This document shows, one piece after another, positions 5,232 through 31,208 of a stretch of DNA of 32,000 nt. The DNA is taken from NCBI RefSeq assembly GCF_018336915.1, contig NZ_CP064923.1:2160001-2192000 (forward strand), in the 5' to 3' direction. A program made the position numbers and the translations under genes. The notes under the pieces are model-generated. The model made no database searches, was not told the DNA's origin, and was given only the letters and a program-made list of their open reading frames with translations. Source of the stretch: Acaryochloris marina S15 (GTDB lineage: Bacteria > Cyanobacteriota > Cyanobacteriia > Thermosynechococcales > Thermosynechococcaceae). The stretch's first letter is position 1. The number at the start of each line of letters is the position of its first letter.

Positions 5232-7028
5232 TTAGGAAAGAGGCTCTAAGCCATATAGCAAAATGATGAGTGGTGGGGTGATCAGTGCCATTAATAGACT
5301 CAAGGGGCCACCCACCCGCATAAAATCTAGAAAGCGATAGCCCCCCGTTCCGTAAACCATCGTGTTGGTTTGATAGCCAATCGGGGTCATAAAGCTGTTC
5401 GAGGCCGCAAAGGTCACGACAAACATAAAGGCAAAGGGGTTATAGCCAAGTTCCTGGGCAACTTGGACGGCCACTGGCAACAGCAAAATTACAGTGGCGT
5501 TGTTGGAGAGAATCTCAGTCAGTAGCGCCGTTAGAACAAAAAACAGGGTGAGTAGCCAATAGCCTGATAATTGTCCCCCAACTGAAATAAGTTGATCGGC
5601 TATCAGTTGGGTCGCACCAGACTTCTTCATGGCAATCCCCAAAGGGAATAAGCCAGCAAGCAAAAATACCACATCCCAACGGACGGCTCGATAGAGTTCT
5701 CCGGGTTTTAGACAGCCTGTTAAGACCATTAACATCACCCCAGCCAAGGCGGTTACGGCAATGGAGAATTGTTTGGTGCCAGCGACGCCTACGACCAGGA
5801 GACCAATTGCGATCGCAATCCACGCTTTGTCCCGTCGGAGATTTTCAACATCTCGCTGTTCCATCACCAACAACTCTTTGCTGGTCTGCAAACCCACCAA
5901 ACTTTGCTTGGGGCCTTGCACCAACAACAAGTCACCAAATCGGAGTCGAACTTTTCCTAAACGATCTCGTACTAACTCTTGTCCCCGCCGAATTGCTAAC
6001 ACTGTGCAGTTGTAGCGTTGGCGGAATCGTAAATCTTTAAGCGTTGAACCAACTAGGTTAGAATCCGCCAGTACCATGGCTTCAGCTGCCCCTTCCTCAG
6101 CACTGATATCGGCTTGCCAGGATTTTTGACCAAATTGCACATCTGGCAGAATTTCTAAGCCTTGGCCATCCCGAATTTTCAGTAAATCTTCTCGGCCCCC
6201 ACGAACCAGCAAAATATCTCCAGCTGACAGGGTTTTATCGGCAAGGGGTTGAGGGAAATGGTTGTCATCATGGATCAGTTCCAAAATGTCAACGTCATAT
6301 ATCCGCTGAATCAGACTGGAACGAACGGTTTGCCCCACCAAATTTGACTGAGGGGTAACCACGACCTCACTGACATAGTCCTTCAACCCATACCCTTGAC
6401 TCAAGCTGGAAGAGGTCTTCCGATTCGGTAGCAACCGATGGCCAATGGTGGCCATGTAAATCAGGCCCGCCGTAAATGTACATAAACTCAGAGCCGTAAA
6501 TTGAAAAATATCAAAAGAACCTAAGCCTAGATCTGACGATAAGCCGCTTGCCAAAACGCTCGTAGAGGTGCCCAGAACCGTAATCATGCCACCCAAAATC
6601 GTGATGTAGGACAGCGGAATCATTAATTTGGACACTGGAATGCGGCGTTGGCGACTCCAATCTTCGACGACGGGTAGAAAAACGGAGACAATCGCGACGT
6701 TATTGATAATGGCGGTAAAAGGGCCAATGACAGCACCCATGATCAGCATGTGTTTTGCGGGTCGTTTGCCCCCCCATTTGAGCAAAAACTCGCTGGCCAT
6801 TTGAATGGCCCCAGTCCGCGCAATCCCCGAACTGAGAATAAACATAGCCATCACCGTGATCGTGGCGGGATTGCTAAATCCAGATAATCCTTCTGTTGTG
6901 TTTACGAGTCCCAGCAACATTAGAACGACCATGACGCAGATTGCCGTCAGATCAGGGGGTAACCATTCAAAAACAAAACAGAGGAATGTTAGTCCTGTCA
7001 CCAAAAAGGTCTGAAGAATTGGCTCCAT
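5232..7028 (-). CDS. SLC13/DASS-family anion permease with two central TrkA-C (RCK-C) domains
   Basis: 598-aa ORF. Hydrophobic N- and C-terminal halves flank a ~180-aa soluble insert with two RCK-C-like units (VVVTPQSNLVGQTVRS...GDILLVRG and MVLADSNLVGSTLKDL...GDLLLVQG). Confidence 0.8.
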   Translation of the reverse strand: MEPILQTFLVTGLTFLCFVFEWLPPDLTAICVMVVLMLLGLVNTTEGLSGFSNPATITVMAMFILSSGIARTGAIQMASEFLLKWGGKRPAKHMLIMGAVIGPFTAIINNVAIVSVFLPVVEDWSRQRRIPVSKLMIPLSYITILGGMITVLGTSTSVLASGLSSDLGLGSFDIFQFTALSLCTFTAGLIYMATIGHRLLPNRKTSSSLSQGYGLKDYVSEVVVTPQSNLVGQTVRSSLIQRIYDVDILELIHDDNHFPQPLADKTLSAGDILLVRGGREDLLKIRDGQGLEILPDVQFGQKSWQADISAEEGAAEAMVLADSNLVGSTLKDLRFRQRYNCTVLAIRRGQELVRDRLGKVRLRFGDLLLVQGPKQSLVGLQTSKELLVMEQRDVENLRRDKAWIAIAIGLLVVGVAGTKQFSIAVTALAGVMLMVLTGCLKPGELYRAVRWDVVFLLAGLFPLGIAMKKSGATQLIADQLISVGGQLSGYWLLTLFFVLTALLTEILSNNATVILLLPVAVQVAQELGYNPFAFMFVVTFAASNSFMTPIGYQTNTMVYGTGGYRFLDFMRVGGPLSLLMALITPPLIILLYGLEPLS

Positions 7029-7246: not shown

Positions 7247-7645
7247 TCAAAGGCTGACTGTCTCTACCAAACCTTGGACATGTCGTTTAACCTGATCACG
7301 GATAATACGGAAGACTTCAATCGATTGTCCAGCCGGATCTTCTAGCTGCCAATCCGCAAATATCGGTCGAGTCACCCAGGCTTCCGGTAGATTAACCCCA
7401 CAACCGCATAAAGAAATGACGGCCTCAAAGTCTGGGGGCTCAAATTCAGCTAAGGCATTGGAGGTGTGATTGCTAATGTCGACTCCCACCTCTTGCATCA
7501 CTTGAATGGTAAGAGGATCGACCTGGCTGGCTTCTAAGCCAGCACTCGCTACTGCAATCTTGTTACCCGCGATTGACCTTGCAAATCCTTCAGCCATATG
7601 GGAGCGACGAGAATTATGCTTACAAACAAACATGATACGTTTCAT
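7247..7645 (-). CDS. arsC: Arsenate reductase, LMW-PTPase type (Synechocystis-like Cys8/Cys80/Cys82 arrangement)
   Basis: MKRIMFVCKHNSRRSHMAEGFA carries the CX5R P-loop, and ISLCGCGVNLP carries the Cys pair. Counting from ATG 7645 puts the cysteines at 8, 80 and 82. ATG 7657 (MEEKMKRI) is an alternative start. The 158-aa track ORF extends 5' into IS630 sequence and is not credible. Confidence 0.85.
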   Translation of the reverse strand: MKRIMFVCKHNSRRSHMAEGFARSIAGNKIAVASAGLEASQVDPLTIQVMQEVGVDISNHTSNALAEFEPPDFEAVISLCGCGVNLPEAWVTRPIFADWQLEDPAGQSIEVFRIIRDQVKRHVQGLVETVSL

Positions 7646-7710
7646 CTTTTCTTCCATGAGTGGATTACTCCCTTCCCGCTGTAAAATCGAGAAGAAAGTA
7701 AATAGACGCA

Positions 7711-8244
7711 GTGAACCGAACACAAGCCTTTCGAGATAAGCCTTTTGATGTAGATGAGTGGCAGAAATTCTACAATCGCAATCAACAACAATACATTCGC
7801 CAGCGATTAACCGCTATTAAACTCTTGCATGAAGGACAGAGTCGTGCCCAAGCGAGTAAGCAAGTAGGGTGTCGCTATGACACTTTAACGTGTTGGATAG
7901 ACAAATTTCTCGACGGCGGACTGAGAGGTTTAGTCCAACCCATTCGACATCGAAAACCAAGTCGGTTGCCTCCAGAACAACAACAGCAACTCAAAGAAAT
8001 GGTGCTAACACAACACCCGACAGACTATGGCATTGATCGCAATATGTGGACGGGGGCTATTTTGTCAGTTGTAATTGAGCAACGCTTCGAGGTGCAGTTG
8101 AAAGACTCTCGTATTTATGAATTGCTCTCGGAGTTGGGGTTGTCTTACCAGCGAGCCCACCGCGACTATGCAAATGCTGATCCGCAAGCCCAGCAAGAAT
8201 GGGTAGCAGCAGTAAAAAAAACTGCAATCGCTACAACCAGGTGA
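7711..8244 (+). CDS. IS630-family transposase, N-terminal (HTH/DNA-binding) part, orfA
   Basis: 177-aa ORF with a GTG start. It contains HTH-like LLHEGQSRAQASKQVGCRYDTLTCWIDKF and a second winged-helix-like segment. It ends just after an A8 run. Confidence 0.8.
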   Translation: MNRTQAFRDKPFDVDEWQKFYNRNQQQYIRQRLTAIKLLHEGQSRAQASKQVGCRYDTLTCWIDKFLDGGLRGLVQPIRHRKPSRLPPEQQQQLKEMVLTQHPTDYGIDRNMWTGAILSVVIEQRFEVQLKDSRIYELLSELGLSYQRAHRDYANADPQAQQEWVAAVKKTAIATTR

Positions 8245-8809
8245 GCGCATCGTATTTTTTGATGAGTTTGCTGTCTCTGAGCGTCCCAATTTATTCTATG
8301 GCTGGGCAGAACGCAATACTCGTCCAGAGGTTCCGAGCAATGAGCGGGCTCGCAAGAAACTCAACGGTTTCCTTTGTGTTGATGCCCATAGTGGCGAGGA
8401 GTATTTTGGAATAAGCCCATATTCCAAAACAGAAGATGTATCAGAGTACTTTGCAGACCTATGCTCCGAATGCGTTGAATCAGGCTACACTCAACTGTGC
8501 ATTATTCTCGATAACAATCCGACTCATAAGCTCAAAATGCAGTCCCAGCTGGCTGTTCATCTAGAGCAAATGGGACTGGCCCAATCGATTCAAGTTGAGT
8601 TTTTGTATCTGCCGTCCTACTCTCCCAAGCTAAACTTGGTCGAATATGTGATTCACTTACTGAGATTGCGATTGCTGCATCATCTCCCCATTGGAACGAC
8701 ACTTCCGCAAATCAGACAACAGCTCTTTCAGTTCATTACCTCAAACCAGTTTCTATCGGCAGCACAAGTCCAAAAAACGCTTAATCATATCTTTTCACTC
8801 GCGCCCTAA
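8216..8809 (+). CDS. IS630-family transposase, DDE catalytic part, orfB (+1 frame relative to orfA, no own start codon)
   Basis: My translation of the frame containing 8216: [25 protein letters not shown]...[11 protein letters not shown]...[11 protein letters not shown], open to TAA 8807-8809. The track reports only its distal part (8537..8809). Confidence 0.75.
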
Positions 8810-8829
8810 TCTTATGCCGGGAAGGGAGT

Positions 8830-9832
8830 AAGCTAAAGGGCGAGAACAACGTGGATCTAAAAGCGTGGCCTTTTCAGGATCTCTAGGGAACCAAAAAGCA
8901 GTTCTTTTACAGACTTCAACTAGTGCCAGCATAAGCGGAACTTCAATCAGAACTCCGACCACTGTAGCGAGAGCAGCTCCCGAGTTCAGGCCAAACAGCA
9001 TGACCGCAGTTGCGATTGCTACTTCAAAGTGGTTACTGGCTCCAATCAGAGCGGCAGGTGCTGCGTCTTCATAGGTCAACCCCAGCTTTTGAGCTATGAC
9101 ATAGGTCATTAAAAAGATAAAGTTCGTCTGTAGAAACAGAGGAACTGCAATCAACACAATATGCAAGGGGTTGTTAACGATTAACTCCCCTTTCAGGGCA
9201 AACAGTAGTACCAAGGTGACCAGTAGAGCGATGACGGCCATGGGGCTGAGCCACTTCAGGAAAACTTGCTCAAACCACTGTCTACCGCGATGCTTCAGAA
9301 TCCAGTATCGGGAACTCATACCGGCGATTAACGGCAGCCCCACATAGATCAAGACCGACAAAACGATGGTCTGCCAGGGCACGATTAAATCGTTAGCGGC
9401 TAATAGCCAGCGCCCCAATGGGGCATAAAGAAATAGCATTGCTAGAGAATTCACAGCTACCATGACCAGGGTATGTCCTTGATTGCTGTAAGACAGGTAT
9501 CCCCACATCAGCACCATGGCTGTGCAGGGCGCAATCCCCAACAAAATAGCACCGGCAATATAAGAATCTGCCAAAGACACTTCACTACCACGAATGACTT
9601 CAGTCCCTTGCAACAGAGGCGTAAATACCTGTCCTAAAAAGAACTGAGCTAAAACCACCATCGTGAAGGGTTTGATCAGCCAATTGACGCCTAGGGTTAG
9701 TAGCACAGGCTTTGGGGTGCGAGCTGCACGACGAGCTTGGCTGAAATCTATCTTGACCATGATGGGATACATCATGAAAAAAAGACAAACCGCAATGGGG
9801 ATAGAGATTTGGTGGAAACTGGCTGCATCCAG
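8830..9832 (-). pseudogene. acr3: Acr3-type arsenite efflux permease, C-terminal fragment (codon ~51 to the native end)
   Basis: The minus frame reads [30 protein letters not shown]...NWLIKPFTM...[11 protein letters not shown]..., typical Acr3/BART-superfamily sequence. The upstream end is cut by the IS at 9833. The native TAA stop is split by the IS630 insertion, so the present ORF reads 11 extra codons ([11 protein letters not shown]) into IS630. Confidence 0.85.
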
Positions 9833-11263
9833 ACAATACCTTCGCCAGGTAAGGATATGAATACAAGGTATTAGTCAAGAGGGCTTTAGTAGGACACTTG
9901 GAATTACTCCTAACCCAGTATCGCTAAAGCCCATGTTTGAGATCCTACCGCTTTTAGATTGCTTGCATCCTTACATCAATCAGACAACCCAGAAACAGCT
10001 GAGCGTCATTATCAGCGCTATGTTGGCGATGAGTGGTCGTGTCACCATGCTAGGGATATCCCGCTGGGCCGGTAAGGGGGGTAGCTATCGGAGTGTCCAG
10101 CGTTTTTTCTACACAACCATTTGCTGGCCGAACCTCCTGTGGGTGTTTTTCCGTGAGCACTGCTGGCGTCGCCACGACACCTATCTTCTCGTGGGAGACG
10201 AAGTCGTGGTGACCAAAGCTGGCAAACACACCTATGGTCTAGGTCGCTTCTTTTCAAGTTTGTATCAGCAGCCAGTGCGCGGTCTCGCGTTCTTTGGTTT
10301 ATCGTTAGTGAGCATTGAGCAAGGTCATGCTTATCCAGTGCGTATTGAGCAAGTGATTCGAGCCCCTCAGCCCCAAATCTTGCCCAAAGTCGAGAAGAAA
10401 CGAGGTCGGGGTCGGCCCAAAGGCTCCAAAAATCAAGACAAAACATCTGTGAGTCTCAATCGAGAATTACTACACATCAAAAGTATGATCACGGCCCTGC
10501 TGGAGCTGATGTGGGGAAGCCTATCACCGACTCATTTGGCCCTGGATGGACACTTTGGCAACAACTATGCCGTGCAAATGGCCCGCCGGGTGGGACTCCA
10601 TTTGGTCTCCAAATTACGGTATGACTCCGCCTTGTATCTCCCCTACCAAGGGGCCAACAGCAAACGCAAATATGGACAGAAGCTCAATCCCCGCCAGATC
10701 GATGAACCATTTCTGTGTGAGCGCTTCTGCGATAAAGGTATTCAAACCGAGATTTTCCAAGTCCCACAGGTCCTCCATAAGGAATTTGCCCAAGCTCTCA
10801 ATGTCGTCATTATTGTCAAAACGAACCTGAGCACCCATGCACAAGTTCACGTCATTTTGTTTAGCAGTGATTTGGAGTTAGCCTACCAGAACGTGATTGA
10901 CTATTACTCCCTCCGATTCCAGATTGAGTTTAATTTCAGGGAGGCCAAGCAGTTCTGGGGCTTGGAAGATTTCATGAACACCACTCAAACCGCAGTGACC
11001 AATGCAGTGAATCTGTCTTTCTTTATGGTCAATCTCTCTGAGCGTCTATTGCGAGACTGCCGGCACGACAATGCCATATTCAGTGTGCTGGACTTGAAGG
11101 CTTGCTGTCGTGGGTACCGCTATGTTGAGGAGGTCTTGAAATTACTTCCGCAAAAACCAGAGCCTATTTCTTGGGCACAGATTATTGCTAAGGTAGCCAA
11201 CTTAGGCGCGATACATCCTAGACAAGCATCCGAAAAACCTGAATGATTTGGCGAAGGTATTGT
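9833..11263 (+). mobile_element. 1431-bp insertion sequence (IS701/IS4-superfamily-like) with 15-bp terminal inverted repeats and a 4-bp target duplication
   Basis: IRL is ACAATACCTTCGCCA at 9833-9847 and IRR is TGGCGAAGGTATTGT at 11249-11263, a perfect reverse complement. CCAG occurs at 9829-9832 and 11264-11267. There is a single 437-aa transposase ORF. Family assignment is uncertain; the 4-bp duplication favours IS701-like. Confidence 0.8.
9933..11246 (+). CDS. DDE transposase of the IS701/IS4-like element
   Basis: 437-aa ORF filling the element. The N-terminus ([33 protein letters not shown]...[25 protein letters not shown]) resembles cyanobacterial IS4-type transposases as I remember them. 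The stop lies 2 nt before IRR. Confidence 0.75.
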
Positions 11264-11414
11264 CCAGACCGACTGCGATGCCAGGCGCAATCCGCCCCAA
11301 GAGAATGCCCACACCAATACAAAGACCCACCCACAGGGTGAGATAGCGTTCAAAGACATTAAGCTGTCCCCCTGCCTGGACTGGAGGGGTGAGTCGAGTT
11401 TTTTGAGTTGTCAT
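11264..11414 (-). pseudogene. acr3: Acr3-type arsenite efflux permease, N-terminal fragment (codons 1-50)
   Basis: [50 protein letters not shown] is a typical Acr3 N-terminus (FERYLTLW). The rest of the track ORF ([10 protein letters not shown]...) is read-through into the IS. Confidence 0.85.
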
Positions 11415-11472
11415 AATTTGATGAGGTTGACGAGAACCCGCTGAATCAGAAAATACTTGAAATAAGAAAGTT

Positions 11473-11892
11473 CTAGCTTGTGCCTATAGATATTTCGTTT
11501 TCTTTAAAAACGCCACAATCTGTATGAATTTGCTGTTGGCTGAGTTGCTCTTCACATCGATGGATAAGCGGTAGTAATTCTGCTTTTAGTTCTTGGAGCT
11601 GAATGATTTTGCTTTCGATCTGTTCAAGCTTTTTGAGTAGTCGTTCATGAATTTCACCGCAAGTTAAGGTATTCCCGGCTTGTAGTACCAAGATCTCTTT
11701 AATCTCGTCTAGGGTTAGCCCTAACGTTTTTGCTCGCTCTATAAGAGATAAACGGGCCAAATCTTGATCATTGAAGACTCGATATCCGGAGTCATTTCTC
11801 TCTGGCGCAGGAATGAGGCCAATCCGCTCATAGTAATAGAGGGTCTGAGGATTAAGGCCAAAGGTTCGAGCAACATCGCTAACACGGTTCAT
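11473..11892 (-). CDS. MerR-family metal(loid)-type transcriptional regulator
   Basis: 139 aa. There is an N-terminal MerR HTH ([37 protein letters not shown]) and a long coiled-coil helix. Cys78, Cys113 and Cys126 sit at positions equivalent to the metal-ligand cysteines of MerR/ZntR-type sensors. Confidence 0.85.
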
Positions 11893-11920
11893 GATGGCGA
11901 TAGGGATTTACACTGGTTGC

Positions 11921-11952
11921 ATCATAAACCTTATACCTAGCTATAAGGTCAA
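11921..11952 (-). promoter_or_regulatory. MerR-type promoter/operator: -35 TTGACC, 20-nt spacer carrying the dyad ACCTTATA-N6-TATAAGGT, -10 TATGAT
   Basis: The minus strand reads TTGACCTTATAGCTAGGTATAAGGTTTATGAT. The -35 is at 11952-11947, the dyad at 11949-11928 and the -10 at 11926-11921, about 29 nt upstream of the merR-like ATG (11892). An over-long 19-20 nt spacer containing a dyad is the hallmark of MerR-family regulated promoters. Confidence 0.65.
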
Positions 11953-12306
11953 GGAGCATATGCTTCCTGACTGTTGTCGCTAAGTCTTCAAACCTCTACA
12001 AATCAGGGGTCTTTAGTCCAAGGAGTGAAAGCATGATGTTGCTGAAAGCGGAGTTAAGGTTGAACCAGGCCTCTTGAAACCCTTATTCCCTCCTAGATGA
12101 CTGTCAGTTAAACAACTTTATTGCGATTGAATGGGCAAGCAAGAACCCTGATGAAAAAGCTGCGAGTCTTCTGCTAAAGGGGGGGAAGAGATAACGGCAA
12201 AAGTCAGCTCTCCAAACCTCTTCCCCTTTTGCCGTAGTCCCACGATAGACTGTGTAAGCAAACCTTTGGTCTGCATGAATTAGGCAATATTTCAGTGGGG
12301 TCGGTG

Positions 12307-31135: not shown

Positions 31136-31208
31136 GGGGAATTAGCTCAGCTGGTAGAGTGCTGCGATCGCACCGCAGAGGTCAGGGGTTCGAATCCCCT
31201 ATTCTCCA
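31136..31208 (+). tRNA. tRNA-Ala (anticodon CGC)
   Basis: I folded the cloverleaf by hand. The acceptor is GGGGAAT/ATTCTCC with the G3:U70 alanine identity pair and an A73 discriminator. The D arm is GCTC-AGCTGGTA-GAGT. The anticodon arm is CTGCG-ATCGCAC-CGCAG (anticodon at 31169-31171). The T arm is AGGGG-TTCGAAT-CCCCT. CCA is not encoded. Confidence 0.93.

Follow-up and report, generated by a model that had tools for sequence, protein, structure and literature searches.

To our knowledge, every bacterial arsenic sensor so far characterised as the controller of an ars operon is a repressor of the ArsR/SmtB family. In the Gram-positive mercury-resistance (mer) operons of Bacillus sp. RC607 and Staphylococcus pI258, merR is the first gene of the very operon that it activates. 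The available text of a 2024 review on bacterial metal sensing assigns MerR-type sensors to Hg, Cd, Pb, Zn, Cu/Ag/Au and Co, deals with arsenic only under ArsR, and describes an over-long 19–20-bp spacer holding a dyad as the defining target of MerR-type activators (PMC11672702). For cyanobacteria, a precedent of MerR-type activation is CoaR (CorR), the cobalt-responsive MerR-like activator of Synechocystis coaT (PMC4284471). Here we analysed a stretch of 32,000 nucleotides from the cyanobacterium Acaryochloris marina S15 (contig NZ_CP064923.1, positions 2,160,001 to 2,192,000; hereafter the window, numbered from its first letter), the minus strand of which carries a gene for a MerR-family regulator followed by acr3 and arsC, encoding an arsenite exporter and an arsenate reductase, respectively. 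The operon is interrupted by two insertion sequences (ISs), termed IS1 and IS2. Comparison of its gene order, promoter and relatives makes it rather probable that the regulator is an As(III)-activated, self-regulating activator of the merR-acr3-arsC operon.

The regulator gene (11892 to 11473, minus strand) encodes a protein of 139 residues with matches to Pfam MerR_1, MerR and MerR-DNA-bind. Its winged helix-turn-helix (wHTH) is of the MerR type (1.1e-17 for PF13411 and 3.6e-15 for PF00376, each exceeding its gathering score), and the region of the dimerisation helix and metal loop matches PF09278 at 6e-17. In an AlphaFold2 model derived from 25 homologs, with a mean pLDDT of 79.5, a single long helix spans residues 78–118 and is followed by a loop of low confidence. 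The protein has exactly three Cys residues (Cys78, Cys113 and Cys126), in addition to His82, His111 and His123. Comparison with solved structures revealed that the regulator best matches the Bacillus Hg(II) sensor MerR (4ua1, E = 3e-22), with CadR, a PbrR-like protein (5gpe) and CueR ranking next. Cys78 and Cys113 align with C79 and C114 of Bacillus MerR, C77 and C112 of CadR, and C78 and C113 of PbrR, the ligand residues at the start and the end of the dimerisation helix. Moreover, Cys126 (motif DCGV) aligns with the loop Cys of PbrR (motif ECGI), in a loop that is four residues longer. An earlier, purely sequence-based reading of this locus (hereafter the original prediction) had placed the three Cys at metal-ligand positions, and both the alignments with MerR, CadR and PbrR and the modelled helix agree with it.

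The features of the heavy-metal branch of the MerR family, namely a wHTH, a dimerisation helix with its loop, Cys at ligand positions and a promoter with a dyad, are all found here. Assignment to a named equivalog was rejected in each case, as the regulator scores 98 bits against a cut-off of 147 for CueR, 88 against 168 for ZntR, 89 against 151 for CadR-PbrR, and 90.2 against 150.85 for the Hg(II)-specific MerR sensu stricto (TIGR02051), and no mer genes occur in the window. SoxR and NmlR appeared as weak matches in the NCBIfam profile search. Because it stays under the curated cut-offs of the CueR, MerR, CadR-PbrR and ZntR equivalogs, the regulator is best classified as a heavy-metal-type MerR without a named specificity. 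It shares 97% identity with a protein cluster of A. marina NIES-2412 (P0001) and 91–93% with the protein of A. marina MBIC11017. Public databases annotate the proteins of this family as “heavy metal-responsive transcriptional regulator”, or mislabel them as mercury or zinc regulators.

The spacer between merR and acr3 comprises 58 nt (11415–11472, minus strand), and the ATG of acr3 lies at 11414. IS2 (9834–11262) splits acr3 at about codon 51, leaving a 5' fragment of approximately codons 1–51 (11263–11414, minus strand), the final 6 nt of which are one copy of the IS2 target duplication, and a 3' fragment (8829–9833, minus strand; recognised by Pfam SBF and by reconstruction) that ends at the TA of the TAA stop codon. 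IS1 (7668–8828) puts 1.16 kb between acr3 and arsC (7247–7657, minus strand). In-silico removal of both ISs, together with one copy of each duplication, yielded an acr3 of 383 codons ending in TAA, followed after 7 or 19 nt by two candidate ATGs of arsC. As a reference we used the intact operon of the Acaryochloris genome assembly GCA_052827785.1 (L001), to which the reconstructed stretch aligned over 2395 nt with 96.7% identity and zero gaps; 379 of 383 residues of Acr3 and 134 of 136 residues of ArsC are identical. Given this gap-free alignment, IS1 and IS2 are the only lesions of the operon. The original prediction, which had located merR, the 58-nt gap, the start of acr3 and arsC on the minus strand, proved exact to the base, as did its estimates of about 383 codons for the excised acr3 and of 7–19 nt between TAA and arsC.

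The reconstructed Acr3 (383 residues) matches PF01758, whereas ArsC, of 136 residues from the first ATG or 132 from the second (7645), matches Pfam LMWPc and scores 202 bits on TIGR02689, for which the cut-off is 157.6. ArsC belongs to the class of the Synechocystis-type arsenate reductase, which has the fold of low-molecular-weight phosphatases and depends on glutathione/glutaredoxin. An Acr3 carrier and an arsenate reductase are combined in one unit, as in an ars operon, and this unit is disrupted here by the two ISs. The operon is dead in A. marina S15, because IS2 splits acr3 and IS1 cuts arsC off from the promoter.

Upstream of merR lies a MerR-type promoter/operator (11921–11952, minus strand) that consists of the -35 element TTGACC (11952–11947), a 20-nt spacer and the -10 element TATGAT (11926–11921). 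The dyad ACCTTATA-N6-TATAAGGT at 11949–11928, to which the original prediction had drawn attention, overlaps the -35 element and fills the spacer. The pattern of promoter and dyad is unique in the window and had 0 matches in 100 shuffles. A promoter of the form TTGAC(C/T/A)-N20-TAnnnT with the consensus dyad ACCTTATAC-N4-GTATAAGGT was found approximately 58–79 nt upstream of the merR start in 61 of 85 loci, the window included. In 17 others the same promoter stands after merR, immediately ahead of the cargo genes and oriented towards them, so that 78 of the 85 loci possess it and 7 lack it. The family thus has two wiring schemes with one operator. As the operator sits between merR and the cargo genes in those 17 loci, the comparison provides direct evidence that it drives the cargo, on either side of merR. 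The loci with the operator after merR are L028, L030, L038, L042, L043, L046, L047, L050, L052, L057, L061, L064, L066, L069, L077, L033 and L040, where it stands 395–877 nt after the merR start and the genes behind it encode an ArsE-like thioredoxin and an ArsP_1 permease, or MerA in L040.

The minus (coding) strand of the 58-nt merR-acr3 gap has neither a terminator-like nor a sigma-70-like site, in line with the terminator-free gap noted before, and a search for a second operator or a conserved element in the spacer found neither. Orthologous loci, even those of different A. marina strains, have kept the upstream operator but not the sequence of the merR-acr3 spacer. With a conserved promoter upstream of merR and an unconserved, terminator-free spacer behind it, the single transcription unit merR-acr3-arsC that had been proposed is supported. 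One might argue that merR and acr3-arsC are controlled separately, with a spacer promoter under a distal ArsR and a MerR that acts on itself or on distant targets. Such an arrangement has a parallel in the ars operon of Synechocystis, which is governed by an unlinked arsR (PMC4284471), and in Coleofasciculus, where acr3-arsC follows an ArsR gene and precedes merR, which shows that the two modules can be separate; in addition, cyanobacterial promoters often have no recognisable -35 element, which makes a consensus scan of the spacer a weak test. Nevertheless, separate control appears quite unlikely, since the spacers, 27–213 nt in length, are terminator-free and unconserved while the operator is kept, the co-directional order survives changes of the flanking genes, and relatives place the operator directly before the cargo genes.

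An ArsR gene was found neither in the window (best E = 0.7) nor in 14 merR-ars loci by a custom hidden Markov model (HMM), and tblastn was likewise without a match; the HMM had been built from ArsR genes of other loci and recovered its controls at 6e-64 and 4e-42. This is consistent with the earlier proposal that a MerR-type regulator takes the place of ArsR/SmtB. The regulator itself was rejected as an ArsR/SmtB repressor, as the Pfam scan revealed no ArsR-type winged helix (HTH_5/HTH_20).

For a survey of the family, homologs were gathered from the protein database and their contigs looked up, and one genome per species was scanned, the best 80 matches of which all lie in cyanobacteria or metagenome bins. 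The survey rests on an 85-sequence tree and four additional loci, and covers the window and ±6 kb around the loci; the open reading frames (ORFs) around each match were clustered, and the main clusters were named with NCBIfam. Among the homologs surveyed, the regulator family is seen only in cyanobacteria. In the window and 17 other distinct loci, merR is followed by an adjacent and co-directional acr3, after which arsC comes in all but three (L053 and L063 have no arsC, and the contig of L097 ends within acr3). At identities of at least about 61%, 11 of the 13 loci examined have the order merR-acr3-arsC (the L097 contig ending within acr3), and the other two have arsJ next (L018; 586 bits, cut-off 400) or an orphan merR (L019). 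The flanks of the merR-acr3-arsC loci vary and include glyS/CitMHS, Tmemb_14, an acetyltransferase, acetyl-CoA synthetase, IleRS/GHL10 and lactamase_B, in addition to a stromatolite contig.

A second merR-acr3 clade comprises six loci of about 50% identity from Geitlerinema and Coleofasciculaceae metagenome bins, and a third is represented by Lyngbya confervoides (L054). Recurrent linkage to acr3 and arsC, which the original prediction had raised as the question for a neighbourhood survey, is therefore seen in 11 of these 13 loci and in two more distant clades; the genes linked to the regulator in its own subfamily are exclusively acr3, arsC or arsJ. Of 40 bootstrapped neighbour-joining (NJ) trees, 39 contained the Acaryochloris clade and 39 the second clade, and in none did these two clades or L054 join one another. 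Parsimony on the NJ tree of MerR gave three state changes for acr3 linkage. The three groups reappear in the Acr3 tree, where the ArsR-linked Acr3 of Coleofasciculus is placed between them. Altogether, a threefold independent origin of the merR-acr3 linkage is moderately supported. In eight further loci acr3 adjoins merR in another orientation; six of them, from five Coleofasciculus bins and one Stenomitos bin, have the order acr3-arsC-merR, usually with a permease next. All five Coleofasciculus loci have an ArsR gene upstream of acr3, and pstS usually stands between the two.

Mercury genes accompany the regulator in eight loci and encode MerA above the equivalog cut-off (TIGR02053), MerT/MerP, MerF and a CopZ-N-terminal-like protein; they occur only beside homologs of roughly 50–60% identity to the regulator. 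Across 25 homologs Cys78 and Cys126 are invariant and Cys113 is kept in at least 90%, and this holds family-wide, mercury-linked members included. Most often, and in most mercury-linked members too, the loop from Cys113 to Cys126 comprises 12 residues. The triad is thus an inheritance from a MerR-like ancestor. As(III) prefers a trigonal-pyramidal three-thiolate geometry, and the three-Cys site is chemically compatible with it. As far as the available text of the metal-sensing review goes, PbrR binds Pb(II), a lone-pair ion, in a trigonal pyramid via three Cys at the equivalent positions, and As(III) in ArsR proteins is bound by three thiolates (PMC11672702).

That the regulator senses Hg(II), or thiophilic metals broadly (Hg/Cd/Pb/Zn), with acr3-arsC merely riding on the transcript or responding by cross-talk, has several facts on its side. 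The best relative of known structure is Bacillus MerR, followed by CadR and PbrR; members of 53–59% identity, alike in Cys spacing and operator, precede genes for MerA (above TIGR02053), MerT/MerP and MerF; and Synechocystis has a Hg-responsive MerR, Slr0701 (PMC6741143). However, Acr3 and ArsC have no role in resistance to mercury or divalent metals, and acr3-arsC stands immediately downstream in the Acaryochloris-type loci and provides the first genes in two more clades, in many genomic contexts. The window is also devoid of mer genes, and the regulator reaches 90 bits where the MerR equivalog demands 151. On balance, we consider a sensor of mercury or of thiophilic metals in general unlikely.

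A number of observations nevertheless weigh against As(III) as the signal. Family members linked to merA, merT or merF have an identical Cys triad and loop length, so that the triad is not by itself evidence for arsenite specificity. With a triad common to mer-linked members and a Bacillus Hg(II) sensor as the best solved relative, the Cys site could still be one for mercury or for a broad range of thiophilic metals. No consistent arsenic-specific residue signature emerged from the alignment of arsenic-linked with mercury-linked members. An ArsR gene may possibly exist elsewhere in the genome, beyond the window and the loci searched. Moreover, the deep branches of the 130-column tree are weak, which is why the support for three origins is only moderate.

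The original prediction had taken the three-Cys site as a pointer to arsenite, an argument that its family-wide occurrence undoes. It had also held out His82 among ligands for a divalent metal as an alternative; this residue varies between His, Tyr, Gln and Arg in the family, and is therefore unlikely to be a conserved ligand. What stands of its arsenic-sensor interpretation is the gene linkage, the single unit and the local absence of ArsR, whereas the specificity argument from the three Cys falls. Positions 94, 116 and 127 are weak candidates for a difference between arsenic- and mercury-linked members, from a small sample that we did not rely on. The one difference that recurs is a small residue at position 127, directly after Cys126, which is Gly, Ser or Ala, and once His, in the arsenic-linked members of three clades, and Ile, Val or Pro in the mercury-linked ones; permease-linked members mostly have Ile or Val. 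A relation of position 127 to specificity is possible.

The commonest cargo, present in 36 loci, is an MTH895/ArsE-family thioredoxin-like protein together with an ArsP_1 (PF03773) permease, preceded in some loci by a DUF442-type protein. In sixteen loci, almost all from Pseudanabaena, a fatty-acid desaturase gene lies downstream. Thioredoxin-like and DUF442/TIGR01244-type sulfur-transferase-like proteins and fatty-acid desaturases would suit a regulator whose Cys triad is a thiol switch for oxidative, electrophilic or reactive-sulfur stress, with the arsenic genes as one of several cargos, and the MerR family does include the redox and electrophile sensors SoxR and NmlR. Yet the sequence groups with the heavy-metal MerRs and not with SoxR or NmlR, the pattern of Cys at ligand positions is the metal-binding one, and three subfamilies have cargo specific to one element (mer genes; acr3/arsC; arsJ). 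A thiol switch is thus very unlikely.

Further members of the family show unusual arrangements. The desaturase-linked loci are L065, L072, L074–L076, L078–L082, L084, L086–L088, L092 and L093; this clade has a DesA-like desaturase, an unexpected cargo for a metal-type MerR, and the same operator upstream of merR, and most of its members have two additional Cys at positions 84 and 119. In Gloeomargaritales cyanobacterium VI4D9 (L009 / L024, 6001–6600), a protein of 199 residues looks like a fusion of MerR with a C-terminal MerF-like membrane segment, and genes for MerT/HMA and then a CopZ-N-terminal-like protein lie downstream. The Elainellaceae locus L010 has merR and merF as two distinct genes that overlap, so this fusion may be real or may be an artefact of a frameshift or of annotation. 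A search of a plasmid collection retrieved one family member, which is permease-linked, on plasmid2 of Aulosira laxa NIES-50 (L094, AP018309.1 67382–77780), and no acr3-linked member. The L094 protein has 55% identity and is encoded on a conjugative plasmid, where a small thioredoxin-like gene and a permease gene come next, followed farther downstream by genes for a major intrinsic protein (an aquaporin-type channel) and a GNAT acetyltransferase.

In the mechanism that we infer for the intact operon, the regulator would act by activation rather than repression, with As(III) as the presumed effector and the three Cys as its presumed ligands. A dimer of the MerR protein would occupy the dyad in the over-long 20-nt spacer between the -35 and -10 elements upstream of its own gene. 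As(III), and probably also Sb(III), would bind at an inter-subunit site made of Cys78 of one subunit and Cys113 and Cys126 of the other. The effector-bound regulator might then untwist the promoter and thereby activate transcription of merR itself, of acr3 for arsenite export and of arsC for arsenate reduction. ArsC is expected to reduce arsenate to As(III), which would be both the inducer and the substrate of the pump.

The two ISs differ in family and in state. IS2, an IS4/IS701-like element of 1429 bp on the plus strand (recognised by Pfam DDE_5 and DDE_Tnp_1 together with its repeats), has perfect terminal inverted repeats of 14 nt, CAATACCTTCGCCA, and is flanked by a 6-bp target duplication, TCCAGA, at 9828–9833 and 11263–11268. 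Its transposase ORF (9933–11246; 437 residues, DDE_5) is intact. An intact transposase, perfect ends and a 6-bp duplication suggest that IS2 inserted recently. IS1, an IS630-family element of 1161 bp on the plus strand (Pfam HTH_33, HTH_32 and DDE_3 on ORF pieces), has the inverted repeats CTCCCTTCCCG and is bounded by a duplicated TA at 7666–7667 and 8829–8830. Duplication of TA is typical of the IS630 family. The insertion point is exactly the TA of the TAA stop codon of acr3, and the Acr3 frame now reads on for 11 codons into IS1, giving a tail of 11 residues. The transposase frame of IS1 is fragmented into at least three ORFs (7711–8244, 8199–8414 and 8537–8809), and the element may therefore be defective, or dependent on frameshifting. 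The transposase genes of both ISs are oriented against the operon. Neither the 32-kb window nor any fetched locus contains a second copy of IS1 or IS2.

Downstream of arsC, at a distance of 218 nt, lies a gene for a CitMHS/TrkA_C transporter of 598 residues (5232–7028, minus strand) that belongs to the ion-transporter superfamily. In the A. marina-type loci L001, L014 and L016 it stands at the same place, which is not so in the remoter acr3-linked loci. An Rfam scan of the window at the gathering threshold gave a single match, a tRNA gene at 31136–31208 on the plus strand.

Full-text literature searches, outside the coverage of which most subscription journals lie, found no report of a MerR-family arsenic sensor, in agreement with the original prediction that none had been characterised. 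Likewise, no MerR-type arsenic sensor appears in the available text of a 2014 review on metal homeostasis in cyanobacteria (PMC4284471), a study of the Synechocystis arsenic transcriptome (PMC4010505) and the paper on Slr0701 (PMC6741143). Whether the regulator is indeed a metalloid sensor, the first of the MerR family, and activates ars genes in response to As(III)/Sb(III), we judge to be evenly balanced. If so, it would add a new element to the repertoire of MerR and constitute a second solution to arsenic sensing with a different mechanism, namely activation rather than relief of repression. Current views on arsenic regulation in cyanobacteria, based on the ArsR of Synechocystis, would then need revision, and tight-off, activatable promoter parts for arsenic biosensors would become available. 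In this family, one operator and one three-Cys scaffold appear to have been wired to genes for mercury, arsenic (on three or more occasions, judging from parsimony on the NJ tree), ArsE/ArsP_1 permeases and desaturases. As closely related, paralogous mercury-linked and arsenic-linked clades share the same operator, the family would form a natural series in which an old problem, the discrimination of thiophilic ions such as Hg(II) and As(III) by MerR scaffolds, is directly addressable by swaps of loops and residues.

Compared to the described MerR-type regulators of cyanobacteria, the regulator of A. marina S15 differs in architecture from CoaR, a sensor of cobalt and B12 intermediates with an additional precorrin-isomerase-like domain. 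It resembles Slr0701 of Synechocystis in being a cyanobacterial MerR-family regulator for detoxification of a thiophilic toxic element, but the target of Slr0701 is an unlinked merA and its signal is mercury (PMC6741143). Slr0701 is not among the best 80 genome matches to the regulator family, and no direct sequence comparison of the two was made. With PbrR, the Pb(II) sensor of Cupriavidus metallidurans, the regulator shares Cys78 and Cys113 at identical positions and the third Cys in a matching motif. However, position 82 is His here and Asn in CadR and PbrR, and the cargo includes no P-type ATPase.

With respect to its cargo, the operon is similar to arsBHC of Synechocystis, as it encodes a cyanobacterial Acr3 and a Synechocystis-type glutaredoxin-dependent ArsC (PMC4284471). 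By contrast, arsBHC depends on the unlinked arsR sll1957, and the fold of the regulator here is that of MerR instead of the winged helix of ArsR. The presumed signal, As(III), and its presumed binding by three thiolates are common to ArsR-controlled operons, from which our locus is distinguished by predicted activation through promoter remodelling, not de-repression, and by the lack of an ArsR gene nearby. The layout is that of the Gram-positive mer operons, in which the regulator gene also comes first and is co-directional with the cargo, behind one MerR-type promoter with a dyad upstream of merR. As in Bacillus MerR, the first two of the three Cys mark the start and the end of the dimerisation helix, and the third lies in the loop behind it. 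Nevertheless, the loop that separates the second Cys from the third comprises 12 residues here compared to 8 in Bacillus MerR, the promoter spacer has 20 nt compared to 19, and the cargo consists of acr3-arsC in place of merA/T/P/B.

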